IMG/VR virus record: IMGVR_UViG_3300007735_000746
Location: 1-47,362 of that record
Origin: a virus
Taxonomy: Duplodnaviria > Caudoviricetes
Reading direction: 5' to 3' (one strand)
DNA: 47,362 nucleotides
Below, piece after piece: positions 2,259-37,248 of this stretch. Numbering within the stretch: position 1 is the stretch's first letter; every line of letters begins with the position of its first letter. Both the position numbers and the translations under genes were made by a program. The notes under the pieces were generated by a model that worked only from the letters and a program-made list of their open reading frames with translations, was not told where the DNA came from and searched no databases.

Positions 2259-3176
2259 TTACTCCGTTCTTACAGCTATACCGTCTATAACTTTATACTT
2301 ACCTAAAACAGGTTGTTTAGCATAATCTAAAATTGAAACACCTTTACTTTCTAATGCTTTAGCAGCTAATCCAATATTTTGTAAACCTTGAGCTTCTTTA
2401 ATTTTTATTAAATCTGAATAATAATTTTTAAGTGCTGATGTTTTTGCTTCAAATGCAGATTCTGTATCACTTGCTGATGGTAAGAATTTTTTTAAATTTT
2501 CTCTTTCTTTATCAGAAACTGTTAATCCAGAAGTTAGTTTAATATAATCTGTTTCAAATCTTGAAAGATCAGAATTAAATTGTTTTACTTGTTTTCCATA
2601 TTCTCCACCAAATATACCACTTACAAAACCACCTATTTTTTCTGGATCTAAGTTATACCAAGGACCAACGGGTTTACCTAATTTTACATAATCTGATTGT
2701 ATTTTATTTAATGTATTTATATTTGATAATAAAGATTCACTTTCTTGTATTTCTTTTTCACTAGGCTTATTTATAATATTAATTTTTCCTGATGAATCTA
2801 TTTGAGCAATAGTACCTGCAGGTAAATTTCTAATTTTAATTTCTTCAGGACTTAAAGTTCTAACTTGTTCTACTGGCTTTGGTTGACCAGCTAGTTCTAA
2901 TTTTTTAATAGCTACTGCAATAGCAGGTGTTTTGGAAATACCTTCTCCAACAGCACTAAATAAAGAAGATAATTGTGATTCACCTGGTTTTTGTTTTGCT
3001 TGTAATAAACTAGCAGCAACTGGTGCTAACATATAACCAAGTTTTTCACCCTCAGTGAATACTTCTCCACCTGTTGCAAGTTTTAATGTAGCAATACCAC
3101 CCTTATTAGTAGAACGAGGTTTTATTTCTTCTACATATTTCTGGCGAAATAATTTTCTTGATAAAACTGAATCCAT
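2259..3176 (-). CDS. Putative internal virion (ejection) protein
   Basis: Position after pilot-like gene; helical; N-terminal TNKGG and LATGG motifs. Confidence 0.6.
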   Translation of the reverse strand: MDSVLSRKLFRQKYVEEIKPRSTNKGGIATLKLATGGEVFTEGEKLGYMLAPVAASLLQAKQKPGESQLSSLFSAVGEGISKTPAIAVAIKKLELAGQPKPVEQVRTLSPEEIKIRNLPAGTIAQIDSSGKINIINKPSEKEIQESESLLSNINTLNKIQSDYVKLGKPVGPWYNLDPEKIGGFVSGIFGGEYGKQVKQFNSDLSRFETDYIKLTSGLTVSDKERENLKKFLPSASDTESAFEAKTSALKNYYSDLIKIKEAQGLQNIGLAAKALESKGVSILDYAKQPVLGKYKVIDGIAVRTE

Positions 3177-4048
3177 TATTTTTTCGCAATGTTATAAGCC
3201 GCATATGCACCTAGACCAGCGCCTGCTGCTTGAGCTAATGGATTAGCTCCAGGAGCCGTGGTTGCTGTTATAGAGCTCTGCGTAGTTGGTAAGTTAGTCA
3301 TTATATTCTTTAAGAATTCTGTTCTTTGATAAGGTTCATAAGCTTGTTGCAATTGTGTTTGTCTTGCAGCTTCTAAAGCTTGTTGACCTAATTGTTGTTG
3401 GATTCCTCCAGCTTGTAATAAACTTTGTATATCTCCTTGTTGCATAGTTTGTTGTTGTGCTCCTGCTCCAAGTAATGCTTGACCAGCACTTAAACCTGTT
3501 TGTGCTTGTAAATTTTGTTGAGCTTGTGCAGCTTGTAATGCAGACTGATAACCAGCAGCTTGTGCTTGTCCTATTTGTCCAAGTCTTGCTCTTTCTTGTT
3601 CTGCTCTTTGTACACCTTCTCTTCCTCCACCAAATGCACCAGCACTAACAGCTTGTGCAGATAATTGATTTTGAGCTTGTTGAGCTTGTCTATTAATTTC
3701 ATCTAATACATATGATTGATATGGATTATAAAATTGAGAAATATTTGGTCCACCATAAGCAGCACCTAATCCAGCTTGTAAACTTTGTATACCTTGTCCA
3801 ACAGCTTGTTGTCCAACACCTGTTTGTCCAGCCATAGTAAAGCCTTGTTGTTGTAATGCACTTGGTGCAGCAACTTGTACCGCTGGTAATGAAATAGGTT
3901 GTTGTGCTAATTGTACAGCTTGATCATATAAAGCAAGCTTACGGGCTTCAACGCCTGGTGCTTCTCTAGCTATTGTTTCCTGAGTTCCAGAAGTAGCTCC
4001 GCCGCCACCGCCACCGCCGCTTCCTCCTCCTCCAAATATACCACCCAT
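3176..4048 (-). CDS. DNA transfer/pilot-like ejection protein
   Basis: Gln/Ala/Gly-rich, NPYQ and AGAFGGGR motifs typical of podovirus DNA-transfer proteins; poly-Gly N-terminus. Confidence 0.65.
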   Translation of the reverse strand: MGGIFGGGGSGGGGGGGATSGTQETIAREAPGVEARKLALYDQAVQLAQQPISLPAVQVAAPSALQQQGFTMAGQTGVGQQAVGQGIQSLQAGLGAAYGGPNISQFYNPYQSYVLDEINRQAQQAQNQLSAQAVSAGAFGGGREGVQRAEQERARLGQIGQAQAAGYQSALQAAQAQQNLQAQTGLSAGQALLGAGAQQQTMQQGDIQSLLQAGGIQQQLGQQALEAARQTQLQQAYEPYQRTEFLKNIMTNLPTTQSSITATTAPGANPLAQAAGAGLGAYAAYNIAKK

Positions 4049-4506
4049 TAAAATAACTCCTTTTGTAATTCTACGTGTTTAACTTTCCAGCCATATTTTT
4101 TTACTACTTTACTCCAGCCTGGTCTAGCCAACATACATAATCTTTTGCAATCATTTTGTATTGCAAAATTCTCAATCATAGCAGCCATATCATCTTGCCA
4201 CAATTCTCTTTTTTCTCCAGTTAAAATAATACCTTCTAACTGTCTTAAATTAGGTTGGTCCGTGATCCGTGTAACGAGGCAACCGAATACTTTTTGTTTA
4301 ACCCCATCATCAGAACCAAATACCAAGAATAGTTGCATACTACCCTCTATTAAATAATCTTTAATATGATGAGCATTAGCAAATCCTCCTGAATACTTTA
4401 AAGCCTCGGCAATCATAAAATTTACCAATGGCCAAAATCTTTCTACATCATGATTATGGATGTGAAGGACGTCTATTCTTTTTTCAATTAGTCTTTCTGC
4501 TTGCAT
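4048..4506 (-). CDS. GNAT-like virion assembly protein (position of T7 gp13/P22 gp14)
   Basis: 152 aa alpha/beta protein with C-terminal GC..L...RPGW.K-like pattern, directly upstream of ejection genes. Confidence 0.45.
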   Translation of the reverse strand: MQAERLIEKRIDVLHIHNHDVERFWPLVNFMIAEALKYSGGFANAHHIKDYLIEGSMQLFLVFGSDDGVKQKVFGCLVTRITDQPNLRQLEGIILTGEKRELWQDDMAAMIENFAIQNDCKRLCMLARPGWSKVVKKYGWKVKHVELQKELF

Positions 4507-5491
4507 CTAATAAATCAAATATTCTTTTAAATTTAGCTTGTTGATCATAGAAGTACGAAGCACCTAATTTTCTCATTTCTCTCATATTGTTTGGTGATGC
4601 ACCTGCCATAATTCCAGCTCCTAATACTGCATCAGAACGAGATACAAATTCTCCATCAGCTAATTGTGCAAGAATAGTATCTTCATCTTTGTCACCGTTT
4701 CCTGATCCATCTTCCACGTATCCTGAAGCTCTAACATAATTGTTTTCGTCTTCTTCATCATGTGTAATTTTTGATGGCATATAATTAACTCCACCTACTG
4801 AAAACTTTGGTAAAGCATCTACGATACCACCTTTGTTAAATGTATACATTGGATTTTGATTATAATTATATAAATTTGTTGCAGACGTATATCTTGGTTG
4901 AGTAATTGTTCCTAAGCCTTTTAATTTTTCTGACTCAGTTGCATATTCTTTTTCGTAATCTTCTTTTGAATATAGTGGTTTTGTTGGTTCTGGTTCTTCA
5001 GCAAAAGCGGACATTACAACTGGTGCTGCAACTGTACCCGCAAGAAATTTTTCTCCTGGACTTAATGATTGAAAACCTGTTGCTGGTACTGCTGGTACTC
5101 CAGCTACTGCTGGTTGATATAGTCTTTCTGGTTGTAATACTTGTCCAGTTGTTTTATCAATAATAGCTTCTCTATAAGTTTGTTCTGGAATAGGTGCTGT
5201 GCCTGGTGTTCCTTTTGTTCCGATTAAAGATTTAATACCTTCTCCTGCGAATGTAGAACCTAATTGTTCCATTATACCGCCGCCTGGAAGAAAACTTCCT
5301 GTCATTCCTGGTAATGAAGTTGAACCGAATGCTTGTGGTGCAAATGAACCTAATCCTTGACCAACTCCGCCCATACCTGCTAACTGAACTCCTCCAGCTG
5401 CTAATAATGCATCTCTAAATGATCTACCTGTGGATTTACCCCTTAATTTCTGTATGCCAAATACGGCTAATGCGACTGTGAATGGATCCAT
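4484..5491 (-). CDS. Virion protein with C-terminal 'GG...D.I.A.L.DGEFV' domain
   Basis: FNKGG, FSVGG then GSGNGDKDEDTILAQLADGEFV, a motif also seen in tape-measure C-termini; hydrophobic N-terminus. Confidence 0.55.
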   Translation of the reverse strand: MDPFTVALAVFGIQKLRGKSTGRSFRDALLAAGGVQLAGMGGVGQGLGSFAPQAFGSTSLPGMTGSFLPGGGIMEQLGSTFAGEGIKSLIGTKGTPGTAPIPEQTYREAIIDKTTGQVLQPERLYQPAVAGVPAVPATGFQSLSPGEKFLAGTVAAPVVMSAFAEEPEPTKPLYSKEDYEKEYATESEKLKGLGTITQPRYTSATNLYNYNQNPMYTFNKGGIVDALPKFSVGGVNYMPSKITHDEEDENNYVRASGYVEDGSGNGDKDEDTILAQLADGEFVSRSDAVLGAGIMAGASPNNMREMRKLGASYFYDQQAKFKRIFDLLDASRKTN

Positions 5492-5553: not shown

Positions 5554-6372
5554 CTATTTAGGTAAATCTTTAGGATCTATATCACTATTAATAATAGTGC
5601 TTGATACTTCAGCTTTATCCTCAGAAACTATAAATTCATCTATTAATCTACCTGTATAACCAAATTCTCCATAATGAGATATATATTCATCTACTAAAGC
5701 ATACATTTTAATACCTGCATGTTTAGCTAGTTTACAAAAATAAAAGTCTTCTCCTGTATAAGTCTTTTCATTAGGATCCCAATAAGTATCAAAGAAATTA
5801 TACATATGTTCTCTTTCTACTAATTTACCATCAATTAAAGTATGTTGTTTAATTGTAAACTCTGGATATTCTTTTATTAATTTTTCTATAGCTTCTCTTT
5901 TAATTAACATAAAACCTGCTGGGCCTCTTTCAACTTCTATAAATCCATTTTCCATTTTTATATTTTTAGAATCTACAATGGACATTGTATATTGATTACC
6001 CATAACCATTGGATCTAATTTAGAGCCACCTTCTATTTTCTTTTTAATCTTTTGAAAGTCCATAGATTTAATTGGATATGGAACCATACAAATATCTTTG
6101 TCATAAGCAACCATCTTTTCAAACATTTTAAATGAATAAGCAATATCAGAATCTACAAATAATAAATGTGTACAAGCAGATGATAAAAAAGCAGATACAC
6201 ATAATTGTCTTCCTTGTGTAACTAAACTACTTTTCATCACTTGAAACATTACAGGTATTTTTCTAACATAACATTCTTTTTGAAATTCTAATGATGCTTT
6301 AAAATAATGAATTGAAACGTCTGAATGAACTGGTGTGCCTACAAATAACTTTATATCTTTACTTGATACCAT
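5554..6372 (-). CDS. Glycosyltransferase, GT-A fold
   Basis: THLLFVDSD (DxD), GFMLIKR, GEDFYFC motifs. Confidence 0.75.
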   Translation of the reverse strand: MVSSKDIKLFVGTPVHSDVSIHYFKASLEFQKECYVRKIPVMFQVMKSSLVTQGRQLCVSAFLSSACTHLLFVDSDIAYSFKMFEKMVAYDKDICMVPYPIKSMDFQKIKKKIEGGSKLDPMVMGNQYTMSIVDSKNIKMENGFIEVERGPAGFMLIKREAIEKLIKEYPEFTIKQHTLIDGKLVEREHMYNFFDTYWDPNEKTYTGEDFYFCKLAKHAGIKMYALVDEYISHYGEFGYTGRLIDEFIVSEDKAEVSSTIINSDIDPKDLPK

Positions 6373-7276
6373 TTAAAAAATTCTCCCAATATTGTTTGAT
6401 AACGTCCCAATGATAAAATTGCTTATAATACTGCATTTGAAATTTTAACTTATCATCTTGTATATTATTAAGTATCTTAGGTAAAGTATCTATTACATAA
6501 GCAAACTGATGTGCTAACTTTTCTTTATCTTTTAAATAAGGTACATAGATTGGAAAGTCTGCGCAGGTTTCATATAAAGCACCGAGGTCCGTGGTCACTG
6601 CTACAAGTCCACAGGCTAACGCTTCAATAGCAGCGATACATGAAGTTTCTTCCCAAATATTAGGATAAACAAATACATCATAATTATGAAGTATCTTTAC
6701 TAATTCATCATGATGACAATAGCCTTTATAATTAACATTCTTTAAACTTTTAGCTTTATCATATAAAGGTTTATATTGATCATCTGCCATTTCTTTAAAT
6801 TGGTCTCCATATATTTGTGTGCTGGAATATATGTCTAATTCTATATTGTCTGATTTAACAAGTTCCATGGCTCTTAGTAATACTTCTAAACCACGCCAAG
6901 GAGTTGAGGTATATACTAATCTTATTTTATCTTTACGTTTAAAATCTTTTCTTAATATTAAATCATCCGTGAAACCATTTTTGATGACCATGGATTGTTC
7001 AGTTGGAATATCAAAAAAGTATCTATATTTCTCATAAACCCAATGAGAGTTGAATACATACCAATCATATTTGCCATGATTTAATTTGTTTTTAAACCAA
7101 GGATGTAAATTAGGTTGATCATAACTATTTTGAATCCATAATACGTTTGTTTTATCTACAACGACTGGACTTCTTTCTGGTACAGAAAGTTCTAATTTAA
7201 TTTTAGAAAGTAATTCTTTAGATACGTATTTATATAAATACGCTAATTGTATTTCACTTCCACCAAAAGGTTGCAT
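6359..7276 (-). CDS. Glycosyltransferase, GT-B/family 4-like
   Basis: N-terminal GGSE, YTSTPWRGL, ETSCIAAIEALACG (E-x7-E). Confidence 0.85.
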   Translation of the reverse strand: MQPFGGSEIQLAYLYKYVSKELLSKIKLELSVPERSPVVVDKTNVLWIQNSYDQPNLHPWFKNKLNHGKYDWYVFNSHWVYEKYRYFFDIPTEQSMVIKNGFTDDLILRKDFKRKDKIRLVYTSTPWRGLEVLLRAMELVKSDNIELDIYSSTQIYGDQFKEMADDQYKPLYDKAKSLKNVNYKGYCHHDELVKILHNYDVFVYPNIWEETSCIAAIEALACGLVAVTTDLGALYETCADFPIYVPYLKDKEKLAHQFAYVIDTLPKILNNIQDDKLKFQMQYYKQFYHWDVIKQYWENFLNGIK

Positions 7277-15452: not shown

Positions 15453-15453
15453 A

Positions 15454-16101: not shown

Positions 16102-16597
16102 AAGTCGTGGTTAATATAAAATTTAATTGTTCTGATGTATTAGCAGTTATATGATATCTTTGTGTAGATGGGAACATTACAAAATCATTATTGTTTAAAG
16201 GTATTTCCCAACTTCTACCTTTTCTTCTATTATCATCATATTCAATAAATACTCTACAAGAATCTTTTCCAACATTTACTCCATAAAGCATTACGTAATC
16301 TGGTGAATGTCTTAAATCTACAGGATCAACTTGTAGATAAGAATGTGAATGTTGTCTTGGTTTATAAATATTACCAATTGTTTTTTTATGAACTAATGTG
16401 AAACCATATTCTAAATTAATATGTTCTCTTAAATATGTTTGTAACATATCCCAAGACCTAGAAAATGGAAATTCTCTATTATAAATTACGGAGGATAAAA
16501 TATCTGCTCCTAATTTTTCTCGGTCTATTTCAAAACCTTTAGGCATTTCTACTTGACCGAAATGTAGGTCTATTTGAGATAATATTTTCTTATGCAT
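16088..16597 (-). CDS. Divergent 2OG-Fe(II) oxygenase-like protein
   Basis: FVMFPSTQRYHI C-terminal pattern; proximal metal motif atypical. Confidence 0.55.
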   Translation of the reverse strand: MHKKILSQIDLHFGQVEMPKGFEIDREKLGADILSSVIYNREFPFSRSWDMLQTYLREHINLEYGFTLVHKKTIGNIYKPRQHSHSYLQVDPVDLRHSPDYVMLYGVNVGKDSCRVFIEYDDNRRKGRSWEIPLNNNDFVMFPSTQRYHITANTSEQLNFILTTTYEFI

Positions 16598-23884: not shown

Positions 23885-23989
23885 TTACTTTTTCTTTACT
23901 GGCTTTTTACTGTTCATGCCAGGAACTTTTCCTGTAAGTTTATAAGGCTTATGTGCTCCGCCCATTGGTTGTTTTGTTGCTACGCTCAT
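23885..23989 (-). CDS. Small basic protein (34 aa)
   Basis: Not in track; MSVATKQPMGGAHKPYKLTGKVPGMNSKKPVKKK; TAATG-coupled, GAGG RBS. Confidence 0.55.
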   Translation of the reverse strand: MSVATKQPMGGAHKPYKLTGKVPGMNSKKPVKKK

Positions 23990-24165
23990 TATCTAATCCT
24001 CGACATTTGTTTTTTGACTTGAAAAGGTTTTTGACCTCTTGGTTCAAAAATACCGCCTTCAGCCATACTGCTTTTTAATGCTTGAAAATCTGCACCAGTA
24101 ATTTTATCTCTTGGTTCAGCTGCTTCAGCAATTTTTAGTTGTTTTGGTGATAGTTCTTTTTTCAT
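23989..24165 (-). CDS. Small GG-tagged protein (58 aa)
   Basis: Not in track; MKKELSPKQLKIA...KITGADF...SMAEGGIFEPRGQKPFQVKK; ATGA-coupled. Confidence 0.7.
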   Translation of the reverse strand: MKKELSPKQLKIAEAAEPRDKITGADFQALKSSMAEGGIFEPRGQKPFQVKKQMSRIR

Positions 24166-24428
24166 GCTTCTATCATACCACCATAATACTTTTTAGTAAA
24201 TGTCTTAACAAAAGTAGGTTTTGGGCCAGTATTACCAGCTGCTCTTTTTCTTTGAACTGCTGATCTTCTTTGGCCTTCTGTCATTCTTCTTGCCTTTGCT
24301 AATGGTACACACTTTGGATAACCTTTTCTTTTTTCTCCTTTAGACCTTCCACAAGGAGCAAAAGAACCATCTTTACGTTTAGAACCTATATCTACCCATT
24401 TTTCTGCTACCCATTTACGTAAGCTCAT
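24162..24428 (-). CDS. Small basic protein
   Basis: LRKW...WVDI...CGR...YPKCVP motif; C-terminal KYYGG. Confidence 0.7.
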   Translation of the reverse strand: MSLRKWVAEKWVDIGSKRKDGSFAPCGRSKGEKRKGYPKCVPLAKARRMTEGQRRSAVQRKRAAGNTGPKPTFVKTFTKKYYGGMIEA

Positions 24429-24429: not shown

Positions 24430-24660
24430 TTAATATTTTTTAGTAACTTTTCTTCTATTACTCATTACATCTCCACAACCTTTTGCAATTCCACCTTGTT
24501 TATAATTAGATGTTTCTTTTCTTTGTTGAGATTTACTTTTACCACCTGGTTTTATTTTTCCAGAACAAACTGCAGATGCATACATATTTGCATAGGCGCT
24601 TGGATAGACTTTAAATTTTCTTTTAGCCGCAGCTTTTCCTCTTGGACAAAGTTTACCCAT
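24430..24660 (-). CDS. Small basic protein
   Basis: KFKVYPSAYAN motif; C-terminal YKQGGIAKGCG. Confidence 0.7.
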   Translation of the reverse strand: MGKLCPRGKAAAKRKFKVYPSAYANMYASAVCSGKIKPGGKSKSQQRKETSNYKQGGIAKGCGDVMSNRRKVTKKY

Positions 24661-27266: not shown

Positions 27267-27665
27267 TTAACATTTCCATCTTCGTCTTGCTTGTCTTAAT
27301 CTAGAATTGGGGTCTTTTGCTGCTTTTGGAAACATTTTCATTTGTCCAGCAGATCTTGCACAATATGATTTTCTTCTTGCAGCTCTTTTTGGGCCTGGTT
27401 TATCTTCTGTTACAGCTGTAGATAACTTTGAACCTGGATTCATTCTTCTGTATGCTTTAACACCAGCTTGTGTCATACCTGCACCAGCTTCTGTAGATCT
27501 AAAATTTTTTTTATTTCTTGGTGGCATCCCGCCTTTAGCAAGATCAACCATGAGACCTAAATTTGCTCTTAATTGTTTTGATTTTTTATTTTTATCAGAT
27601 TCTTCACCAAGACCATAATAGTCTTGTAATGTATCGTAGTAAGTGCCTGATCGTATAATAGGCAT
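27267..27665 (-). CDS. Basic protein with RRKSYCARS...RRWKC domain
   Basis: Widespread phage basic domain; preceded by LAKGG. Confidence 0.7.
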   Translation of the reverse strand: MPIIRSGTYYDTLQDYYGLGEESDKNKKSKQLRANLGLMVDLAKGGMPPRNKKNFRSTEAGAGMTQAGVKAYRRMNPGSKLSTAVTEDKPGPKRAARRKSYCARSAGQMKMFPKAAKDPNSRLRQARRRWKC

Positions 27666-28065: not shown

Positions 28066-28992
28066 TTAAGCTCCTGCTGAACCGAAGATTCCTCTAGGGT
28101 CTGACCAGCCGTAGCTGTATCTTTCTCTAGCTTTGAATCTAACGTTTCCAGTGTCAAAATCACCTTCGATAGCCGTTTTAATTGGCGATCTTACAAAGTG
28201 TTTTAAACCATTTGGTGCGTCAGTTATGATGAAAAATGCATCAGTGTCTGTTAAGAAATGGTTAACTCTGTAACCTTCTGGGATCATTCCCATATTTAAC
28301 ATAGCGTTGATGTCGTTTTTCGCGAACGCATTTGAACCACCTGGAGTTGTTGATAAAGGAGTTCTTAAAATTCTCTCAGCAGTAAATTGTAATTCTTTTG
28401 GAATTACTAATTTTCTACCTTGTAGAGCGATTTTTAATCCTCTTTCATCTACAAACGCAGCAATATCAATTAATGATTGCTCAAGTGATGTTTCTGATAA
28501 GTCAGCAGCTGTCGAAAGAATGTTTCTAAACGTTCCTCCGTTAGCAAGTGGGTGATCGTTAGCTAATAAAGCTTTTCCATCGCCACCTGTGTAAGATGAA
28601 CTAAAACCATTGTTCAAGATGTTAGCCGCAATCGTTTGCTTAGTTTGCGACATTGATCTTGCCAATGCTCTAGTGTATCTCGCAGCAAGTCTGTCATACA
28701 AGTTATCTTCAATAGCTTCCTCAGTAATTGCGAATGCTAAAGCAATCGTATTATGAGTGTATCTAGAAGTGTATGCTTCTGTAGCATTATCAAATACTAC
28801 TGGAGCACCTTCTTGTTTGATTTCAGCGCCTGCAAATCCTGTTAACATAACTTCTTCTTCGAAAGCTCGATCTGAAGTTTCTGTTATAAAGATTTCTGCG
28901 TCTTCGTTATCGTATCTATTGTATTCCAGGCCGAATAGTGCATTCAATCCTGGCTCTAGTTCTTTAACTAGCTGTGAACGTGATATAGCCAT
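28066..28992 (-). CDS. Major capsid protein
   Basis: MAISRSQLVKELEPGLNALFGLEY...ITEEAIEDNLY...KARERYSYGWSDPRG, HMO-2011/HTVC023P-like; strong RBS and terminator. Confidence 0.9.
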   Translation of the reverse strand: MAISRSQLVKELEPGLNALFGLEYNRYDNEDAEIFITETSDRAFEEEVMLTGFAGAEIKQEGAPVVFDNATEAYTSRYTHNTIALAFAITEEAIEDNLYDRLAARYTRALARSMSQTKQTIAANILNNGFSSSYTGGDGKALLANDHPLANGGTFRNILSTAADLSETSLEQSLIDIAAFVDERGLKIALQGRKLVIPKELQFTAERILRTPLSTTPGGSNAFAKNDINAMLNMGMIPEGYRVNHFLTDTDAFFIITDAPNGLKHFVRSPIKTAIEGDFDTGNVRFKARERYSYGWSDPRGIFGSAGA

Positions 28993-29005
28993 AAATTATC
29001 TCCTA

Positions 29006-29584
29006 TTATAGACCTGTTTGGTTTTGTTTATAGAAGTGATTATTAATTCTCACTACTATGTTAGCGTTAGCAGCAGCTGTATCACTATTATTTGGATCTT
29101 GTGATATATCAATTGCCATTAACGGTAACGTGTTTGTTGTGTTTGCTGAACCTTGATCTAACTGAACAAAAGAAATACCAGTTTGTGTATTTCCAGTTAC
29201 GTTAGTTACATCATAGTTTGAAAACAGACCAGTAACGGCCACTGTGCCGCTAGCATTGATTTCATAAACCGTGTCTGGACCATCAATCACGAACGCTGTA
29301 ATGTCTGAAGCGTTTGTACTTGCTGGATAATAATTTTTCCATGTCGGTTTTTGAGTCGTTGGGTCTGTATAAAAGCAACCATTGAAAACACCCACAACAG
29401 AAGTTGTAGTACCCGCAACATATCTTGTGATTGTTCCAGCAGTAGTTGGTATAACCAAATCTCCTTGGAAAATCGCAGTAGTATTATTTGCAGATATTCT
29501 ATATCTGTTCTGAGCATTAATAAATGGGCTGCCATTTAGTTGTCTAGATGGTCTAAGACCAAACTTTTCTAGTACATTGGGCAT
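29006..29584 (-). CDS. Capsid cement/decoration protein
   Basis: FGLRP...IFQGDLV...GVFNGC; directly upstream of MCP. Confidence 0.7.
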   Translation of the reverse strand: MPNVLEKFGLRPSRQLNGSPFINAQNRYRISANNTTAIFQGDLVIPTTAGTITRYVAGTTTSVVGVFNGCFYTDPTTQKPTWKNYYPASTNASDITAFVIDGPDTVYEINASGTVAVTGLFSNYDVTNVTGNTQTGISFVQLDQGSANTTNTLPLMAIDISQDPNNSDTAAANANIVVRINNHFYKQNQTGL

Positions 29585-29639
29585 TATTTATACTCCTTGT
29601 TTATAGTTTATATTTACTTTGGTTGGTATTACAAAAAAA

Positions 29640-30113
29640 TTACTTTTTAGTCCCACCACCAAAAGTTACGCGAGATTGTCTATTAATATTAATAGGCATC
29701 TCAGGTCGTTGTTCCTTCATTAGATCGGCATCTATCGCGTTTATTCTATCTTGAGTAACTCTTCTAAAGTACTCCGCGCGAGATTTAACGATCTCTTCAG
29801 GTATCCTAGCCAACACTAGGCCAGCAACCCCGATCAACCCTGCGTATTTTCCGTCATGGATAACTGGGTATGCGTTTTTACCGAATCTATTTAAAATTTC
29901 TTCGGCTCTAACGAACTCCCAACCTTCTCTCATTTTCTTCGATACATTTGCTGTATCTTGAAAACCCATTGACTCGACTCTGATCCATCTGTGGACAAAG
30001 CCTTCTGGCGCAGGTGGTGCATCCAGAGATGATGGTGGCGTCCAAGGTTTATTTCTATCAACCTTAATTTCTTCTGACGCGCGTGAAGATCTTTTGTTTT
30101 CTTTATCGCTCAT
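29640..30113 (-). CDS. Conserved head-module protein
   Basis: WTPPSSLDAP...HRWIR...REGWEFV...GLVLARIP. Confidence 0.7.
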   Translation of the reverse strand: MSDKENKRSSRASEEIKVDRNKPWTPPSSLDAPPAPEGFVHRWIRVESMGFQDTANVSKKMREGWEFVRAEEILNRFGKNAYPVIHDGKYAGLIGVAGLVLARIPEEIVKSRAEYFRRVTQDRINAIDADLMKEQRPEMPININRQSRVTFGGGTKK

Positions 30114-30114
30114 A

Positions 30115-31125
30115 CTAATTTGCCTCCTTCACGTATTTAGCGTATTCTTCTAGTGGCACCCCTAATTTTTTAGCAATAGCAACTTGTGATTTGGTGAGTC
30201 TCACAGTTCTGCGTCCCTCCTGTTTTCTTCCAGCGGAAGCAACAGTTTGAACGGGTTTACGTTGTTCTTCAACAGTAAACTTATGAGGGAAATAACCCTT
30301 CATACGTTTATCTATCTCATTATAATACTCATCGCTCTCAACTTCAACACCACTGCCAACTAGTTCTTCATGGATTGAAAAAGCGGCTTGGGTCATGATT
30401 TTATCATCGCCAAACCAAGTATTTTTAGTAGCCCAAGACTTAGCTTTTTCGCTAGGTTTAGGTACTACAACGTTTTCTTTTTGTGTTTTAGCTTCTTCAA
30501 CTTCAAGTTTTTTCTGTTCTTCAAGTTGTTTAGCTCTTAACTGACGATCAGCCATTTGCAATTTAGCTTTTTCTTTTTGAACGGCTAATTGCGTTAACTC
30601 ATCGTTAGCTTCCATGATCTTATTAGGATCATTAGCTTCAATAGCTGCTTTTAATTTGATTTTTACTTGTTCTCTTTGAGCATCTACTCTTGCATCAAAT
30701 TCTTTCAAGTAATTCTCATCAGCAGTATCAAATTTCTTCTCGTAATCGCTGTATTTCTTTTGCAAACCTTTTGCAAATTCTAAAGCAGCTTGTTCTCTTC
30801 TTTCTGCTTCTCTGTATCTACGAGTTAGTTTATCGATTCGCTTTTGAACAGATTCAGAAATTTCTGATAAGTCATCAGTTTTAACTTCTTCTTTCTGTTC
30901 TATAGGTTTAGTTTCAACTACAGTAGGTTTTTCTTCTACTTGTTCAACTTCAACCTTTTCTTTTTTCTGATCTTTAGAGTGAGATGTATAACCAAGATCA
31001 ACTTCACCAACATTTAAACTTGGCGCTTTCTTCTCGGACTTTGTCTCCTCTTTTATTTGTATTTCTTGTTCTTTAACATCGTCAAGATCAAGCTCCACTT
31101 CTGGAGTCTTCTTTTCGTCTACCAT
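30115..31125 (-). CDS. Capsid scaffolding protein
   Basis: Acidic coiled coil, VQKRIDKLT, C-terminal AIAKKLGVPLEEYAK. Confidence 0.75.
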   Translation of the reverse strand: MVDEKKTPEVELDLDDVKEQEIQIKEETKSEKKAPSLNVGEVDLGYTSHSKDQKKEKVEVEQVEEKPTVVETKPIEQKEEVKTDDLSEISESVQKRIDKLTRRYREAERREQAALEFAKGLQKKYSDYEKKFDTADENYLKEFDARVDAQREQVKIKLKAAIEANDPNKIMEANDELTQLAVQKEKAKLQMADRQLRAKQLEEQKKLEVEEAKTQKENVVVPKPSEKAKSWATKNTWFGDDKIMTQAAFSIHEELVGSGVEVESDEYYNEIDKRMKGYFPHKFTVEEQRKPVQTVASAGRKQEGRRTVRLTKSQVAIAKKLGVPLEEYAKYVKEAN

Positions 31126-31136
31126 TTATGTTCTCC

Positions 31137-31583
31137 TTAGTATAGGTGGAGAATATCTTGAGGACGTTTAACAATACCTATGATTTCATCATCATTCAAA
31201 ATACGATGTTCACCATATTTTGTTTTAAAACGAGATCCAGCATATCTTCCATACATTACGAACTGGCCTTCTTTGCACCAAGCTCCTGTAGGAAATTTAT
31301 CTTTATCTAAATAACAAAGATCTCCCATTTTAACTACAATTCCAATAACTGTAGTCATAGCAATTGTATCTTGAGTTTGTTCGGATAAAATAATTCCGCC
31401 TTTAGTTTTCGCCTCTCCAGCAAATGGTCGTATTAACATACGGTAACCAATTGGATCTGGAAGCGAGTCTAAATACTCCTTGATGCCTTTTGCGTCTGTT
31501 GGGATTTTTGTGGATGTCTCGTTAGATTTTTCAGAACCATTAGTTGGAAGAACTAATTTCTGATTCGGTACCACTATCGTCAT
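31137..31583 (-). CDS. groES: Co-chaperonin GroES-like protein
   Basis: PIGYRMLIRP...KTKGGIIL...GIVVKMG...YAG...ILNDDEII. Confidence 0.85.
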   Translation of the reverse strand: MTIVVPNQKLVLPTNGSEKSNETSTKIPTDAKGIKEYLDSLPDPIGYRMLIRPFAGEAKTKGGIILSEQTQDTIAMTTVIGIVVKMGDLCYLDKDKFPTGAWCKEGQFVMYGRYAGSRFKTKYGEHRILNDDEIIGIVKRPQDILHLY

Positions 31584-31770
31584 CTATACTCTCCTCTTTA
31601 TGTTGCAGGTCTTTTAGATCCTGTAGCAGCGTCTCTAATGCGCTGAGCCTGCCCTTAGCATAGTGGAGCCTATCTAGTGTGTCTATACCATAGCAAATAT
31701 CATGACGAGTTTCTTCTATACGTTTTTTCACGTATTTTCTTATATATTGCAGGGTATTTATGTCCATCAT
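31540..31770 (-). CDS. Small helical conserved protein
   Basis: YAKGRLSALE motif; usual position upstream of phage GroES. Confidence 0.6.
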   Translation of the reverse strand: MMDINTLQYIRKYVKKRIEETRHDICYGIDTLDRLHYAKGRLSALETLLQDLKDLQHKEESIDDDSGTESEISSSN

Positions 31771-31782
31771 AAATTTATTTTA

Positions 31783-31890
31783 CTAAATTAATTTATCTTT
31801 TTTAAATCTTTTTATTTTTTTCTTCAATTCTTGCCGCCAAATCCAATAATCTAATTTAGCAGATAACTTTTTAATTAAGTTAAATAACAT
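31783..31890 (-). CDS. Small amphipathic basic protein (35 aa)
   Basis: Not in track; MLFNLIKKLSAKLDYWIWRQELKKKIKRFKKDKLI fills the gap. Confidence 0.45.
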   Translation of the reverse strand: MLFNLIKKLSAKLDYWIWRQELKKKIKRFKKDKLI

Positions 31891-32074
31891 TCTTATCTCT
31901 TTTGATGTGACCTAAAACGGTACCTTTATGAGAACCTTCTTTGATTGTATAACCAGAAGTTCCATTACCATTAATCTCAACTTCTTTTCTGCTTCTAAGT
32001 AAAGCATTATTTTTCTTTTCTATTTCTTTAGAAGAAAAATTTTTAGCTATTAAATCTTTTAATCTTTCTAACAT
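31880..32074 (-). CDS. Hypothetical protein
   Basis: 64 aa, TAATG-coupled. Confidence 0.55.
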   Translation of the reverse strand: MLERLKDLIAKNFSSKEIEKKNNALLRSRKEVEINGNGTSGYTIKEGSHKGTVLGHIKRDKNVI

Positions 32075-32172
32075 TAAAATGCCTTTTCTATTTTTAATAT
32101 TGGTTTATCTATATTTGGTGAATTTACATTATTGCATGAAAAAAGCAATAATAAAACAACTAGGTATTTCAC
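32074..32172 (-). CDS. 32-aa lipoprotein (spanin-like?)
   Basis: Not in track; GTG overlaps holin stop (TAGTG), stop overlaps next ATG (TAATG); MKYLVVLLLLFS-CNNVNSPNIDKPILKIEKAF. Confidence 0.6.
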   Translation of the reverse strand: MKYLVVLLLLFSCNNVNSPNIDKPILKIEKAF

Positions 32173-32600
32173 TAGCCGTTTTCTTGGTCTTTTGGTTGAG
32201 GTTTGTTTGCCATAGTTCTAGCAACCGATTCTGCAGATCTTCCTACCACATATCCACCTAAACCTATTTGTAATAATGTCCAAACATCTCCTGGTAAAGT
32301 TATAGTAATGGAAGCTTTAAAAAAGAATAAGATTACTGGTCCTAATACATAATTCCATACTAATATAAATATTAGTACATACATTAGTAATGGTCTCCAA
32401 CTTGCTGCAAACCATCCTGCTTTTGCTTCTGCTTCTATAATTTTAGCTGCTGCAGTTAACTCTTGCGTATGAGACTGCAACATTTGAGTTTGCAGATCAT
32501 TTTTTAATTTAGCTGCGAGGTCTTTGTCGGCAACTGCTTTATCAACGGTGTTGAATAAGATTTTTGCAAGGGGTGCGACTGCTTGTAAAACTGGTAACAT
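32172..32600 (-). CDS. Holin (3TM, GTA-type)
   Basis: EAKAGW...SWRP, two TM segments, LGGYVVGRSAE. Confidence 0.8.
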   Translation of the reverse strand: MLPVLQAVAPLAKILFNTVDKAVADKDLAAKLKNDLQTQMLQSHTQELTAAAKIIEAEAKAGWFAASWRPLLMYVLIFILVWNYVLGPVILFFFKASITITLPGDVWTLLQIGLGGYVVGRSAESVARTMANKPQPKDQENG

Positions 32601-32926
32601 TCTGTAAATTTCTCCTGTCTCCTTATACCAAGATATGGAATAAGTTGCAACATCACATCTATAGCTCTATCTCCTGAAACCGTCCATGTCCATGATCTAC
32701 TATGCTTATTATTCTTTGGTAAATGAGTACTAATTGATCCTAATTTAAAATAATTAATAAATCTTACAACAATATCTTCATCACACATTCTTATTTGTGC
32801 TCTAAGATATCTATTTGATTTACCTACTTTTCCCCAAAAACCAAATGATCCTTCACCTTCAAATACTCCTGCAAGAAATATTAATTTTTGTTCTTTTGAT
32901 AACGATTTATATTTTTGTTCTAGCAT
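32504..32926 (-). mobile_element. Free-standing LAGLIDADG homing endonuclease
   Basis: FLAGVFEGEGSF single LAGLIDADG motif; inserted between portal region and holin. Confidence 0.8.
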
Positions 32927-32955
32927 ATATCCCTTTTGTTTTTAAGAAATGTATA

Positions 32956-33138
32956 CTATTTATTTTTATTTTGTCTAGAAATATATCCACCTAATTTCAT
33001 ACCTTGAGAAGCAGGTCCTTTTTTAGGAGGTGGGCCAAATCTTACGCCTGGCATTTTAATCTTTTTGATTTTTTGTATTGATGGTTTTTTAATTTTACTA
33101 ATTTTAGGCTGTTTAATCTTAGGAATACCAATTTTCAT
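32956..33138 (-). CDS. Small Lys-rich protein
   Basis: KI.KP repeats, GPPPKKGP, MKLGG. Confidence 0.65.
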   Translation of the reverse strand: MKIGIPKIKQPKISKIKKPSIQKIKKIKMPGVRFGPPPKKGPASQGMKLGGYISRQNKNK

Positions 33139-33140
33139 GG

Positions 33141-35486
33141 TTATCTTTTAGGAACAAACGCTTGTTGTTGTTTTTCTCTAGCAATTTTTAATTTTTCTTC
33201 TGCAACTTTAATTCTTTGTGCAGCTTGTTGCTCTTGATTTTCTACTTTCATCTTCTCAACATCAATTCTATCTTCAAATTCAAAAGATTTTCTCTCCATT
33301 TCTTGTTGAGACTCTCTTGCACGTCTTTGAATATCTAAAGCTTTAAGATCTAACTCTCTTTGTTTCAACATTACTAACGGATCTTGTTGTTGTCCACCTT
33401 CTGCTTGTACTAATTGTTGAGTTAATTCTACAATTCGCTTAGCAACTAGTGAATTAAATTGAACTTGATAGCCATTTGGATCTTGTTGTTGCATTATAGC
33501 GTTCTGTGGGTTCTCTGACATCGCTGCTCCAACCTCTCCATGAGCTTGATATGCGATATGATCTGAAATATGTCCTTGAAGTAGAGCATAAACCATTGGA
33601 TTTGTTTGTACCATTCTACTTTGCATGAAGATTGCATGCGCACTAATGTGAGAAACATGATCTTGCTCTGGAAAAACTTTTAATAATTCCATTCTTAATG
33701 CTTTAGAGTTCTCCGTTGCTGGATCTTCTGGCGTTGGTTCTTGTTCTGGAATTAATAAATCATCAATTTGTCTAGTTCCTAATGCTTCATACACTCTTCT
33801 GTACGCTTCTCTTAGGTTATGCATCTGTGGATTTGACATTGCAATCTTTAAATTTTCATTTGCAAGAGTTACTCTTTGTGCCATTGAGTAAATACTTGGA
33901 TCTGCAACTGGAATTACATCTACTCTATCATTAAAATCTTCTTGTTTAATGTTTCTATCTGCACCATAAACTGCGTATGGATATTCTGGTGGTAAGTAAT
34001 CTGCAAAAACTCCAGCTAAAATTCTAAATTCTTGTTTCATTGCGTAGTAACATCGCTTATGAATAGCTGACATTACACGTGATCCTCGTTCTAATAATGC
34101 GATTGTAGTACCAACAGCTGCTTGTTGATTACCATCTCCTACTTGCATGTCGGCGATGGATGCAAATCTTTGTCCAGCTTGTACTACAAATCCTAATAAT
34201 TGAAATAAAGTTTGACTTGGTTCCTTAAATGGTAGTATTTGGAACTGATCTTTTATGTTTCCGCCTGGTGCATCTACGTCTCTGAACTCACCTGGCTGGA
34301 ATGGTTGGTCATCATCCCTGATTCTAATACCACGGCTCTTGAATCCTGCTGGTAAATTAGCAAGAGTACCTGCATCTAATAACTGTCTTAAGCTAGAAGT
34401 AGCAGTTCTAGATAATCCACCAATCATATGAATTAATCCAAAGCCATAGAATCCTAAACCTGGTAAAAATTTATAATGTACAAAGTATTCTTTTCTAGTT
34501 TTTAATGGATCATCTTGATCATAATTTCTATATACAGATAAAACTTGTTGTGAACCTTCATCAATTGTTACTACATAAGGTACTTTTATATTTTTTTCTT
34601 CTTTATCAGCTGTTGTTTCATATTCACTTAAATCTAAGTCAACATGCATTTCTAAAATATTATATTGATAAGTTGTATCTCCACTTGGTTTAACACCTTC
34701 AATCTCTGATAATTTTTGTTGTATTGCTGTTTGTTCTGGTTGTTTTGGAATTAATTCTACATCTAAATAGAATCCAGCTTTTTGATATTTAATAACATCA
34801 TTCTCATTCATCTTAACAAGGTGAGTAATACGCTCACAATCTTTAAGATCAGTTGCATAATATGGAACTACTAAATCATCTGCAGGTACAAATTTAGATA
34901 CTGCTCTTTGTAGTATTTCATCATAATAAACTTTTTTAAATGCAGATCCTGATAATGGTAAATAAAATAATAATTGGTCAAAGTCTGGAGTATATTCTTC
35001 CATTTTTTCCATCAACATATAGTTCATGAAATCTTTAACTCTTTCTGCTTGTCTTAAAATATCTGGTGTCTCTAATCCAACAACCTCTGCTCTTACAGGG
35101 CCTTCTGCTGGTAATAATTCTTTATATGCTTGTGCTTGAAATTGTGTAACTGATTCTGCAAGTAAAGGATGTGTAACTCCTGTTGCTCCTTGGAACGGTC
35201 TAGTCATGTCTTGGTATTTAAATCCTAATAGATCTAAACCTTGAACATAAGTTTGTTCCCAATCTAATCTTGATACTCTATCTTTTTTATAGTCGGCAAT
35301 AAGATCTAATGCTAGACGACTCAATACTCTTTCGTCCATATCTTCAGCAAGGTTCTTGTAAAAGTTTTCTTCTACAACTTCTTGCGGAACTGACTCTTCT
35401 TCAGGAAGAACAACTTCTAATCCTTCTTCAGGAATAGAGTTGTCCTCCGTTAGAATTTCTTCATTAATCTTTTCGACTTCAGCCAT
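33141..35486 (-). CDS. Portal protein
   Basis: 781 aa; HPLLAES..QFQAQAYKELLP, GSAFKKVYYD, GFYGFGL, C-terminal coiled coil; between TerL and head genes. Confidence 0.9.
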   Translation of the reverse strand: MAEVEKINEEILTEDNSIPEEGLEVVLPEEESVPQEVVEENFYKNLAEDMDERVLSRLALDLIADYKKDRVSRLDWEQTYVQGLDLLGFKYQDMTRPFQGATGVTHPLLAESVTQFQAQAYKELLPAEGPVRAEVVGLETPDILRQAERVKDFMNYMLMEKMEEYTPDFDQLLFYLPLSGSAFKKVYYDEILQRAVSKFVPADDLVVPYYATDLKDCERITHLVKMNENDVIKYQKAGFYLDVELIPKQPEQTAIQQKLSEIEGVKPSGDTTYQYNILEMHVDLDLSEYETTADKEEKNIKVPYVVTIDEGSQQVLSVYRNYDQDDPLKTRKEYFVHYKFLPGLGFYGFGLIHMIGGLSRTATSSLRQLLDAGTLANLPAGFKSRGIRIRDDDQPFQPGEFRDVDAPGGNIKDQFQILPFKEPSQTLFQLLGFVVQAGQRFASIADMQVGDGNQQAAVGTTIALLERGSRVMSAIHKRCYYAMKQEFRILAGVFADYLPPEYPYAVYGADRNIKQEDFNDRVDVIPVADPSIYSMAQRVTLANENLKIAMSNPQMHNLREAYRRVYEALGTRQIDDLLIPEQEPTPEDPATENSKALRMELLKVFPEQDHVSHISAHAIFMQSRMVQTNPMVYALLQGHISDHIAYQAHGEVGAAMSENPQNAIMQQQDPNGYQVQFNSLVAKRIVELTQQLVQAEGGQQQDPLVMLKQRELDLKALDIQRRARESQQEMERKSFEFEDRIDVEKMKVENQEQQAAQRIKVAEEKLKIAREKQQQAFVPKR

Positions 35487-36007
35487 TAGTAAAGTTTTGT
35501 AGGTTTACTTCTTGCTAATTTGTTTCCTCTTGCAACGACTGATCCACCTTTAGATGCTTTAATCATTTTACCTTTTTTAGCACCTGTCATAGAACGGTTA
35601 TATGCTCTAACTTTTTCATCAAAAGCAGATAGAGCCATTTTTCTATCAGACATTTGACTTCCTCGTAATGCTTCTATTCTAGCTCTTCTTGCTGCTTCAG
35701 AAGCTCTGAATCCTTCTAAAGAACCTCTTGGTGACGTTGTTGATGCTGCCATTGATTGTTTATCTGCACCTTCTATTTGATTAAATGCAGTGTCTCTTGC
35801 TTCTCTTCTTGCAATATCAATACTAGATTGTGGTCCTGCGTACATTGATCTACGCGCTGGTCCTTCCATTGCGTTGATATCTGCTTCTGCGCCTTCAAGC
35901 TTAGCTATATCCATAGGACTTTTTTGTCCTAATACTTTAGATGCGCCATATGCGGCTGCTAACCCTAAACCAATCTTAGCTAAATCTTGTAATTTTTTTC
36001 TTGCCAT
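35486..36007 (-). CDS. GG-tagged hypothetical virion protein
   Basis: Hydrophobic N-terminus; C-terminal ASKGGSVVARG. Confidence 0.65.
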   Translation of the reverse strand: MARKKLQDLAKIGLGLAAAYGASKVLGQKSPMDIAKLEGAEADINAMEGPARRSMYAGPQSSIDIARREARDTAFNQIEGADKQSMAASTTSPRGSLEGFRASEAARRARIEALRGSQMSDRKMALSAFDEKVRAYNRSMTGAKKGKMIKASKGGSVVARGNKLARSKPTKLY

Positions 36008-36071: not shown

Positions 36072-36242
36072 TTACAGTAAATCGTTAATATATCCGCCAC
36101 CTTTTACCTTGATTTCTCCACCTTCTTGCTTCTTGTCTTTCATGGTAAAAAGCTCTTGTTCTAATATACCGACCTGATCGGTATCTCCTTTAATTTTAGC
36201 TTCTTCTAATAACTGTAATAATTGTTTTAATCTACTTGGCAT
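36072..36242 (-). CDS. Small GG-tagged protein (56 aa)
   Basis: Not in track; MPSRLKQLLQLLEEAK...KQEGGEIKVKGGGYINDLL; TAATG-coupled. Confidence 0.7.
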   Translation of the reverse strand: MPSRLKQLLQLLEEAKIKGDTDQVGILEQELFTMKDKKQEGGEIKVKGGGYINDLL

Positions 36243-36634
36243 TATATTAAATCCTTAATGTAATCTTTTCCTTTTCCAACTTCAACTTCTCCACCTGATT
36301 TAAATTTTTTAGTAATACCAAATCTGATTTCTTTTCCTTGTGGATTTTTTGATACACCAAAACCAGCAATAGTTGATTTATCTTCTGAAGTATATTGTGC
36401 ACCAAGTCCGAGGTCCGTGGAGCTTGATCCTGCAATACCGTATTCTGTTTGACCCTTCTTAACAGTTGCTCCTATGACTGGTTTTTGTTTTTCAATATCC
36501 AAACCACCACCAATGTTTGCGTATTCTCCTTTTGACTTGTCTAATAAATCTGGTCCTACTAAATCAGTAATATCAATTCCAGATCCTACAACTTTATCGC
36601 CAAGTGTTCTAGAAATTTTATTTAGTATTCCCAT
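36242..36634 (-). CDS. GG-tagged beta-strand protein
   Basis: Alternating amphipathic strands; C-terminal FKSGGEVEVGKGKDYIKDLI. Confidence 0.65.
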   Translation of the reverse strand: MGILNKISRTLGDKVVGSGIDITDLVGPDLLDKSKGEYANIGGGLDIEKQKPVIGATVKKGQTEYGIAGSSSTDLGLGAQYTSEDKSTIAGFGVSKNPQGKEIRFGITKKFKSGGEVEVGKGKDYIKDLI

Positions 36635-36886
36635 TTAGAATATTCCTCTGAATGGAACCTTTTTAATTTGAATTGGTTTTTGTCCTCGAGCAAATCCACC
36701 TTCAACATAACCTGCTGCATCTTCCATCATTTTTGTATCAGGATCAACAGTTGGATACTCAAGTTGTTTTTTAGTTCCTTTACCATACATTGTTTCTGCA
36801 GTAATAGGAGGTTTATCTTTTTGGTCGTAGAATCCTTCTTTGAATTCATTGCGACTCATGTAAGGATCTTTTTTCTTTTTAGCCAT
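36635..36886 (-). CDS. Small GG-tagged protein
   Basis: C-terminal YVEGGFARGQKPIQIKK. Confidence 0.65.
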   Translation of the reverse strand: MAKKKKDPYMSRNEFKEGFYDQKDKPPITAETMYGKGTKKQLEYPTVDPDTKMMEDAAGYVEGGFARGQKPIQIKKVPFRGIF

Positions 36887-37248
36887 TATGATAATTTAGC
36901 TGCTCTAATTCCTTTGATCGCGGCACCCGTTCCACGGACCATGCCACCTGTTGCCATCTTTTGTGATTTAGATTTACCAGCTTCAGATAATGCAATAGCA
37001 ATTGCTTGTTTAGGATTTTTTACAACTGGACCTTTTTTTCCAGAATGTAATTTACCAGCTTTGAATTCTCTCATGACTTTACCAATTTTCTTTTGAGCTT
37101 TAGTCATACCACCTTTAGCTGATTTAACCATTTTACCAGATTCAGTTTCTTCGTAACCTTCTTCTTCCATTTTATATTCTTTAGCTTCTTCAGCTTTTGA
37201 TTCCATAGACTCGTGTTCTTTAGACATGTCTTTTGCTTTTTTCTTCAT
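36886..37248 (-). CDS. Small protein with KVMREFK.GKLHSG...QAIAIALSEA domain, GG-tagged
   Basis: Widespread phage basic domain flanked by SAKGG and MATGG. Confidence 0.7.
   Translation of the reverse strand: MKKKAKDMSKEHESMESKAEEAKEYKMEEEGYEETESGKMVKSAKGGMTKAQKKIGKVMREFKAGKLHSGKKGPVVKNPKQAIAIALSEAGKSKSQKMATGGMVRGTGAAIKGIRAAKLS

Follow-up and report, generated by a model that had tools for sequence, protein, structure and literature searches.

A Gly-Gly tag on late proteins of an HTVC023P-type podophage and a tape-measure-type end module as its candidate partner

Introduction

Short peptides that send proteins headward have been described in phages T4 and P1. According to passages of PMC9024508, such a peptide is proposed to bring unrelated proteins that are injected later (T4 internal protein IPIII, P1 DarB) into the head, and short peptides are enough for this loading in both phages. 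These capsid targeting sequences are N-terminal and, in the same passages, proven with reporter fusions, whereas the Gly-Gly tag described here is known from sequence alone. The tag also differs in position, lying at either end, internally or in tandem, and mostly C-terminally or internally. Unlike the P1 Dar proteins, which those passages describe as lacking a common consensus, it has a clear GG consensus and a dedicated module.

Two further systems resemble this arrangement. Residues 1022-1066 of the JBD30 tape measure gp46 form a predicted 'hook', proposed in passages of PMC11445458 to anchor the protein next to a cut. The JBD30 hook, Douge gp16 (PDB 8ZDO) and, weakly, lambda gpH 733-782 have the same core as our module, with a tag in front. 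In contrast to the JBD30 and Douge hooks, the module studied here ends a 335-aa short-tailed-phage protein and has an additional long helix at its C-terminus; a dozen other proteins share its tags, whereas the passages of PMC11445458 do not mention tags. For crAss001, PMC10172136 describes a domain of cargo protein C1 gp45 that sits on the portal within the head. This internal virion protein resembles our locus in its eight look-alike tags and its tag-bracketed G..GE-V domain (PF25725), with small basic modules between tags and a bracketing that is kept in relatives; however, crAss001 has one polyprotein where our locus has separate genes. No significant profile match links our module to the gp45 domain (hhalign 0.1-0.3%; Atlas lead 0.79 only), and none of our proteins matches PF25725.

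Gly-Gly consensus sequences are also known from ASFV pS273R and C39 double-Gly leaders, both of which need a cysteine protease. The adenovirus protease AVP, with pVIc, has a Gly-Gly consensus and a basic C-terminal peptide (passages of PMC4246237). All three systems need a cysteine protease, and none, whether of clan CE or C39, was found among the proteins scanned here from a partial genome, so that the likeness to them drawn in an earlier, sequence-only reading fails on this point.

Results

The window, as we call the whole stretch of 47,362 nucleotides that was analysed, is a partial genome of an aquatic podophage of the HTVC023P type. Orthology and synteny tie its capsid, portal, GroES and ejection-block genes to HTVC023P, and the capsid protein is 76% identical, with gene order alike. 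Passages of PMC9599517 list GroES as a core gene of HTVC023P-type pelagiphages, and neither tag nor cassette was found in the text passages of that paper that were searched; the literature searched likewise yielded no description of the tag among the matches listed. The head genes lie as follows:

28066..35486, minus strand: untagged head-gene context (capsid protein, two core genes of no named type, scaffold-like, GroES, portal)
28066-28992, minus strand: capsid protein, untagged
33141-35486, minus strand: portal, untagged

For capsid protein and portal, searches turned up no relative of known structure at a useful E-value, and core gene 29640 has no named look-alike. This core gene was dropped as a possible tag reader, tag-less genomes sharing it by gene order.

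Twelve late window proteins carry a tag of the form [FYMK]-x-[KET]-G-G-x-[VIA]. All 16 motif sites proposed in the sequence-only reading were confirmed in minus-strand ORFs, and of its approximately 13 tagged proteins only one is doubtful, a 34-aa ORF whose weak QPMGG falls below the matrix score. The hydrophobic-x-x-G-G form given there needs a correction: position -3 is often Lys instead of hydrophobic, and Val/Ile three residues past the first Gly is as typical of the tag. The small tagged ORFs include those of a cassette between terL and portal:

23885..23989, minus strand: 34-aa basic ORF, weak tag QPMGG, doubtful member (below score with the 140-site matrix)
23989..24165, minus strand: 58-aa ORF, tag MAEGG and RGQK-type tail
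24162..24428, minus strand: 88-aa basic ORF, C-terminal tag KYYGG (phrog_23735)
24430..24660, minus strand: 76-aa basic ORF, tag YKQGG and KGCG-type tail (phrog_27331)
27267..27665, minus strand: 132-aa basic ORF, tag LAKGG before DUF6321
32956..33138, minus strand: 60-aa basic ORF past the portal, C-terminal tag MKLGG
35486..36007, minus strand: cassette ORF, tags AKKGK and ASKGG, ARGNKLARSKPTKLY tail
36072..36242, minus strand: cassette ORF, tag KQEGG and neutral YI-x-DLL tail
36242..36634, minus strand: cassette ORF, tag FKSGG and neutral YIKDLI tail
36635..36886, minus strand: cassette ORF, tag YVEGG and ARGQK-type tail
36886..37248, minus strand: cassette ORF (DUF6496), tags SAKGG and MATGG, RG-x-GAA-x-x-G tail

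HTVC023P gp52 has the same end as the 24162 ORF, and the strict motif occurs in 15 of 33 orthologs of the 27267 ORF, some of which are without the tagged leader. FATGG in the 21698 protein was rejected as a tag, being internal, likely structural and found in 6 of 18 orthologs; GFAKGG in MW202785, preceded by an HExxH motif, was not counted.

In the ejection block, the tag is present on three of four large proteins, the remaining one serving as an internal control:

1..2256, minus strand: large ejection-block protein, HTVC023P gp83 ortholog (752-aa open frame, cut by the window edge)
2259..3176, minus strand: ejection-block protein, gp82 ortholog (25-aa conserved leader, then tandem tags)
3096-3110 and 3066-3080, minus strand: tandem tags of the gp82 ortholog, at aa 23 and aa 33
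3176..4048, minus strand: DNA ejection protein, untagged (phrog_4287, E 1e-4)
4484..5491, minus strand: gp79 ortholog (tandem tags, then a tape-measure-type end module)
4826-4840 and 4790-4804, minus strand: tandem tags of the gp79 ortholog, at aa 218 and aa 230
4487..4855, minus strand: end module, aa 213-335 of the 4484 protein, candidate tag reader or carrier
4643-4663, minus strand: LADGEFV of the end module

The C-terminal tag of the gp83-type protein lies beyond the window edge; 10 of 13 complete orthologs have a tag at the end, and the C-terminus of HTVC023P gp83 reads LFNRGGIADVRRK. This protein was overlooked in the earlier list.

Enrichment of the motif was measured against shuffled controls. 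Across 57 late proteins, phi-x-x-GG was observed 100 times versus 58.6 in within-protein shuffles and phi-x-x-GG-x-phi 23 times versus 11.5; with four Gly-rich fibre proteins left out the count was 16 versus 5.6, and in late proteins of ≤180 aa (n=32) it was 9 versus 1.8 (2000 shuffles, p≤0.002). These loose patterns were picked after the sites had been seen, and held-out matrix tests weigh more. A matrix built from 15 window sites scored in 21 of 802 dereplicated ORFs from relatives, none of them a BLAST homolog of a training protein, where shuffling gives 3.15 (100 shuffles, maximum 10). Conversely, a matrix from 140 sites in IMG/VR relatives, with near-identical loci left out and 4484 and 2259 orthologs kept, recovered 7 sites, spread over 6 of the window's 56 late ORFs, versus 0.51. 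The 16 early proteins bear no tag, but only 0.03-1.16 hits are expected there, so that this absence carries no statistical power.

The tag is conserved among orthologs. The strict motif occurs in 24 of 25 gp82 and 75 of 78 gp79 orthologs, and in 2/80 MCP, 1/26 portal, 1/64 scaffold-like and 0/50 GroES orthologs (loci not dereplicated in either set); the DNA ejection protein at 3176 has it in 3 of 64. Aligned gp82 leaders keep GG invariant in 19 of 19. Loose patterns do also match Gly-rich fibres and the structural protein 21698, but the held-out and shuffled controls together with ortholog conservation contradict a chance product of Gly content, which we regard as extremely improbable. The tag is real: on a dozen late proteins that are otherwise unlike one another, and in relatives, it occurs far more often than chance predicts.

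Placement is less uniform than first described. Eleven of the 16 sites lie within 25 aa of a terminus and 5 farther inside, and the basic tail said to follow the tag was seen in five checked tails (net +4 to +5), whereas those of 36242 (-1) and 36072 (0) are neutral. Among 1499 small dereplicated ORFs of relatives, [FYM]xxGG was found near the C-end 99 times versus 23.4 expected, internally 69 times versus 60.4, and near the N-end 33 times. Tandem tags are spaced 11-12 aa apart in 43 of 56 cases. The terL-portal cassette exists in 18 distinct versions of 0-6 ORFs each, and 48 of 56 cassette ORFs carry a loose tag, with about five tail types at their ends: the N-terminal parts are exchanged while tag and tail stay constant. 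A rough count over cassette tails gave 120 synonymous versus 133 non-synonymous codon differences; it was set aside, coming from non-independent pairs with paralogs possibly mixed. Held-out enrichment, ortholog conservation and the variable cassette thus uphold the idea that interchangeable late proteins have a modular tag in common.

Tails alike in length and register, on cassette genes that are tandem neighbours, could also reflect spread of one small gene end by duplication or recombination with no shared reader, but the tag is fixed in unrelated contexts (gp82 N-end, gp83 C-end, ahead of the module). A mimic of the GroES mobile loop that binds host GroEL was likewise considered, as KTKGGIIL of the window GroES is near TNKGGIAT and FNKGGIVD; against it, GroES is present in the tag-less CRP-901, QDWS535, MW202785 and MW202796, and tape measures are tagged. 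We judge this pair of explanations very unlikely.

The end module of the 4484 protein has the core G-x-G-x4-D-x-I-x-A-x-L-x-D-G-E-F-V followed by two helices, and shows the hook core G-x-G-T-x-x-S-D-x-I-x-A-x-L-S-x-G-E-F/Y-V after a tag. It matches the tape measures of Douge (8zdo, E 3e-14) and JBD30 (8rk3 1022-1058, E 2e-4), and has no family match in Pfam or NCBIfam; neither lambda H nor crAss gp45 was picked up by its HMM. An intermediate homolog matches 330 phage records, nearly all tape measures among the 60 listed. The 4484 product itself is a 335-aa protein of a podophage-type ejection block, not the long helical protein of a long tail that defines a tape measure. In the aligned, listed homologs a tag stands nearly always directly in front of the module, and siphophage tape measures bracket it with tags. 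Across 58 aligned modules D59, D67 and E69 are invariant, with no conserved Cys, His or Ser. AlphaFold2 monomers (mean pLDDT 61.7 and 66.9, pTM 0.38 and 0.46) gave two confident helices and an uncertain hairpin, with pLDDT ≤59 over residues 1-70 (tag and core), and Foldseek found no PDB match to the model at E≤0.001. A prediction that paired the tagged gp82 leader with two copies of the module core (residues 24-123) scored 0.00; run without controls and with an uncertain partner fold, it speaks neither for nor against binding.

The module tracks the tag across genomes. Among 11 genomes of the capsid family, which are not independent and were compared without a tree, the module is present in 6. 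Five of these six show tag enrichment under one or more of three scorings, against 0 of the 5 module-less genomes. HTVC023P is enriched under one scoring only and MinM2 only under another, while in Caulobacter phage RW, which encodes the module, tags occur on the module's own chain alone. This co-occurrence makes the 4484 domain, singled out in the sequence-only reading, the best candidate partner. Heads are built without tag or module in CRP-901, QDWS535 and three further genomes, so the system is dispensable.

Maturation cleavage at the tag, as the earlier reading proposed, has no support so far. Scans agree with its statement that the window holds no recognisable canonical prohead protease: no protease family was found in late proteins of this partial genome (62 window proteins against Pfam, 42 against PHROGs, 21 against NCBIfam), and the protease-like genes seen are limited to an M15 endolysin and, among the early genes, an ArdC-type zincin. 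A tag that is cut, by an oligomer of the module with its invariant Asp/Glu residues or by an unrecognised protease acting at or just before the tag, would set leaders, tails and ejection proteins free as the virion matures or at ejection. The leader-like layout of gp82, with its invariant GG after a conserved 25-aa leader, fits this idea, as do the D59, D67 and E69 of the module and the tags that part modules in polyprotein-like chains (8 in crAss gp45, 8 in L253:29802-31151). No catalytic motif occurs among late proteins, however, the module conserves no Cys, His or Ser, and a cut at tags 9 residues from the C-end would free almost nothing.

Published structures bear on both sides. In favour of cleavage, PMC10172136 places two tag-separated gp45 pieces on opposite portal sides. 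The modelled piece 425-552 starts A-F-G-G, uncut after GG; because this look-alike tag (425-428) is modelled intact in the mature virion, cleavage after GG is disfavoured. The first modelled residue is the tag's second, compatible with a cut before A-x-G-G; cleavage is nowhere mentioned in the main-text parts covered. In lambda, gpH is cleaved within a Gly-rich stretch some 14 kDa from the end, enzyme and site being unknown (PMC12617516), and FATGG (733-737) and YATGG (778-782) lie around its G..GEFV element. Against a cut at the tag, a piece released after FATGG would weigh 12.2 kDa, while cuts in the plain GG runs at 709-721 would give 13.8-14.6 kDa, and the match of the module to gpH is weak and not significant (hhalign 4%; PHROG E 0.014). 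On this balance we consider cleavage at the tag unlikely and hold docking, in one form or another, to be probable.

Discussion

Our leading explanation, offered tentatively and at somewhat less than even odds, is that the tag acts as an uncut docking clasp that binds the 4484 end module, with tagged proteins likely gathered into the head during assembly. The tag would be a conserved portable peptide on three ejection-block proteins and on variable small late proteins. The module might act as an oligomer (12 portal-bound copies, if crAss001 gp45 is a guide) and would bind tags in cis and in trans, while small basic proteins may travel along as DNA-binding or accessory cargo. Tagged proteins would then be in the virion, the module inside the head, and the tag would stay uncut. 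We infer the head location from gene context only. Since tail tape measures carry tag and module and need no head address, the tag probably serves in the first place to clasp ejected proteins and only secondarily to address them to the head. Tape measures bear both elements without head loading, which speaks against gathering into the head, and the portal analogy rests on a shared tag layout, the kinship of module and gp45 being non-significant.

Alternatively, the tag and its 14-20-aa tail could dock directly on the capsid inner face, scaffold or portal, the 4484 module being another tagged carrier. The small-protein tails are of few fixed types with hydrophobic last residues (KDLL, TKLY/F, GVF), which suits binding to a structural surface, and RW combines the module with cis tags only. 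Against this, tag-less genomes share the capsid, scaffold-like and portal genes while the module tracks the tag, and tagged tape measures have no capsid surface to bind; we think direct docking rather unlikely.

A broader proposal, to which we give little credence, is that tag and module form one system, so far undescribed, common to the ejection proteins of podophages, the tape measures of siphophages and the cargo of crassviruses, in which an oligomeric module with acidic residues would bind the tag, load swappable cargo and cut beside the tag. Were this true, the long-missing enzyme and site of lambda gpH processing would be named. Tag and module in tape measures offer a concrete, cheap test of where and how gpH is cut (PMC12617516).

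Capsid-protein patterns of this family match about 24,000 stored IMG/VR stretches, and the phage group with the tag is very abundant. How short-tailed phages choose proteins for packing and injection is largely open, and a tag of five to seven residues bears on that question. It would predict virion content from sequence, suggest what many unnamed small ORFs probably do, and provide a loading handle for engineering.

Genome identity and organization

The 47,362-nt window (34% G+C) covers part of a podophage genome. Its capsid protein shares 76% identity with that of Pelagibacter phage HTVC023P, and its late genes follow the HTVC023P order: terL, portal, GroES, scaffold-like protein, two unknown core genes, capsid, neck, fibres and ejection block. 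The 3176 protein (minus-strand ORFs are named by lowest coordinate) matches a DNA ejection protein family, and the host is probably SAR11-like.

4484, 4048, 3176, 2259, 1-2256: ejection block, by gene order versus HTVC023P
29006-30113 (-): two core genes without a name, lying between the scaffold-like gene and the capsid gene and conserved in 69-76 of the loci compared
31395-31409 (-): GroES loop KTKGGIIL, similar to the tag; relatives have GroES in the head module whether or not they carry the tag
32504-32926 (-): gene for a LAGLIDADG/HNH-like endonuclease within the head module; it overlaps that of the holin
39867-40811 (-), 40951-41652 (+): early ArdC-type protein with zincin domain (ArdcN, MPTase-PolyVal); GP88 family protein
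5554-7276 and 14165-16597 (-): glycosyltransferase and 2OG-Fe(II) oxygenase genes within the late operon

Enrichment, conservation and anatomy of the tag

The sequence-only reading had placed 16 copies of a hydrophobic-x-x-G-G tag on mostly unrelated late proteins, and all 16 lie at the positions given; the tag is approximately [FYMK]-x-[KET]-G-G-x-[VIA]. Relative to within-protein shuffles, phi-x-x-GG-x-phi occurred 23 times in 57 late proteins (11.5 expected) and nine times in 32 small late proteins (1.8 expected). Because such patterns were fitted after the sites were known, two held-out tests were done. A window-trained matrix scored 21 of 802 dereplicated, non-homologous ORFs of relatives as positive versus 3.15 expected (maximum of 10 in 100 shuffles). 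In the converse test, training on 140 sites from relatives gave a matrix that recovered seven window sites versus 0.51 expected. The tag exceeds shuffled-control expectation and is real and widespread; the early-gene comparison has no statistical power. Some details of the original description required revision: 11 of the 16 sites lie within 25 aa of an end and five do not, two of the supposedly basic tails are neutral, Lys is common at the -3 position described as hydrophobic, and 23885 is doubtful as a tagged protein.

Across loci that were not dereplicated, the strict motif is kept in 24/25 orthologs of 2259 (HTVC023P gp82), 75/78 of 4484 (gp79), 15/33 of 27267, 4/11 of 24162 and 4/14 of 24430, versus 2/80, 1/26 and 3/64 for the untagged capsid, portal and 3176 genes. 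Many small-protein orthologs missing it have variants, such as A-x-K-G-G or G-K. The tag also forms the end of 10 of the 13 complete orthologs of the large protein cut by the window edge (1-2256).

Among 1499 small dereplicated ORFs of relatives, the motif was four-fold enriched near the C-terminus (99 versus 23.4), little enriched near the N-terminus (33 versus 23.2) and not enriched internally; tandem tags were spaced by 11-12 aa in 43 of 56 cases. From 80 portal loci we obtained 18 distinct terL-portal cassettes of 0-6 ORFs each, the remainder being duplicates or lacking terL or portal in the stretch examined. A loose tag occurs on 48 of 56 cassette ORFs, which end in about five tail types. 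The portable unit of the small proteins is thus the tag together with a tail of 14-20 aa, attached to N-terminal parts that are unrelated. Past its capsid gene, MW202545 encodes a basic protein of 449 aa (L253:29802-31151) that has eight tags and resembles fused small tagged genes.

A tape-measure-type module in 4484

The last 123 aa of 4484 (aa 213-335, the module) match no named family in Pfam or NCBIfam. They do match tape measures: two matches fall in Douge gp16 (E 3e-14) and one in JBD30 gp46 at 1022-1058 (E 2e-4), the latter stretch being predicted in PMC11445458 to form a 'hook' by which the tape measure is anchored next to a putative cut. Proteins of 2,268 and 2,482 aa, with a tag before each copy, were reached by profile search, and an intermediate homolog matched 330 phage records, nearly all tape measures among the 60 listed, and many tape-measure PHROGs. 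AlphaFold2 gave a confident fold for two C-terminal helices only. In MW202545 (L253:11333-14494) the module is duplicated, with GD replacing GE in the first copy, and the ejection-block proteins are rich in Cys runs (CCSCCC-type repeats). A 1000-aa module-bearing protein, P0262, has a Hint-like domain and several tags.

Of 22 GenBank records sharing this capsid, 10 were scored alongside the window, leaving out early stretches of four. The module was found in the window, HTVC023P, DSL-LC04, MinM2, RW and MW202545. In this small sample, with kinship ignored, tags were enriched by at least one of three scorings in every module-bearing genome except RW, whose tags are on the module protein only; HTVC023P was positive solely in the relatives-trained matrix run and MinM2 by simple pattern only. 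Neither tag enrichment nor module was detected in CRP-901, QDWS535, MW202785, MW202796 or PK1.

Candidate mechanisms

Of the readings considered, we tentatively favor one in which the module binds the tag as a clasp that stays uncut. A reading in which the tag docks on capsid, scaffold or portal differs from the clasp in its reader alone and is unlikely.

ASFV and C39 systems require a protease. No cognate protease was found among the proteins scanned in this partial genome, so the tag lies outside both and is not a member of the adenovirus-type GG system (PMC4246237). The same absence weighs against the tag being a cleavage site, which we consider somewhat unlikely, as do a lambda size fit that is better for other GG runs than for tags and the modelled piece of crAss001 gp45, which begins with an intact A-F-G-G (PMC10172136). 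Points in favor of cleavage are the leader-like layout (the conserved leader of 2259, 25 aa long, closes with a GG invariant in 19/19 aligned sequences, the window plus 18 picked from a larger ortholog set), the polyprotein-like chains, invariant Asp/Glu residues and the cut in lambda gpH that PMC12617516 leaves unexplained.

Two tags flank a module-like element in lambda gpH, which matches the module weakly. crAss001 gp45 has eight look-alike tags, and its portal-bound domain is bracketed by tags in relatives; a gp45 profile did not match the module. One gp45 relative (L297:1501-1860) has in-frame stops under table 11, and stop-codon recoding is possible. The tag would work much as T4 and P1 capsid targeting sequences do (PMC9024508) but differs from them in position and consensus. 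The tag is undescribed in the literature searched, with subscription journals outside coverage.

For the clasp, we infer that tagged proteins reside in the virion and that their tags are bound and not cut; the module would thereby gather the ejection proteins that carry tags, together with optional small ones, into the head.
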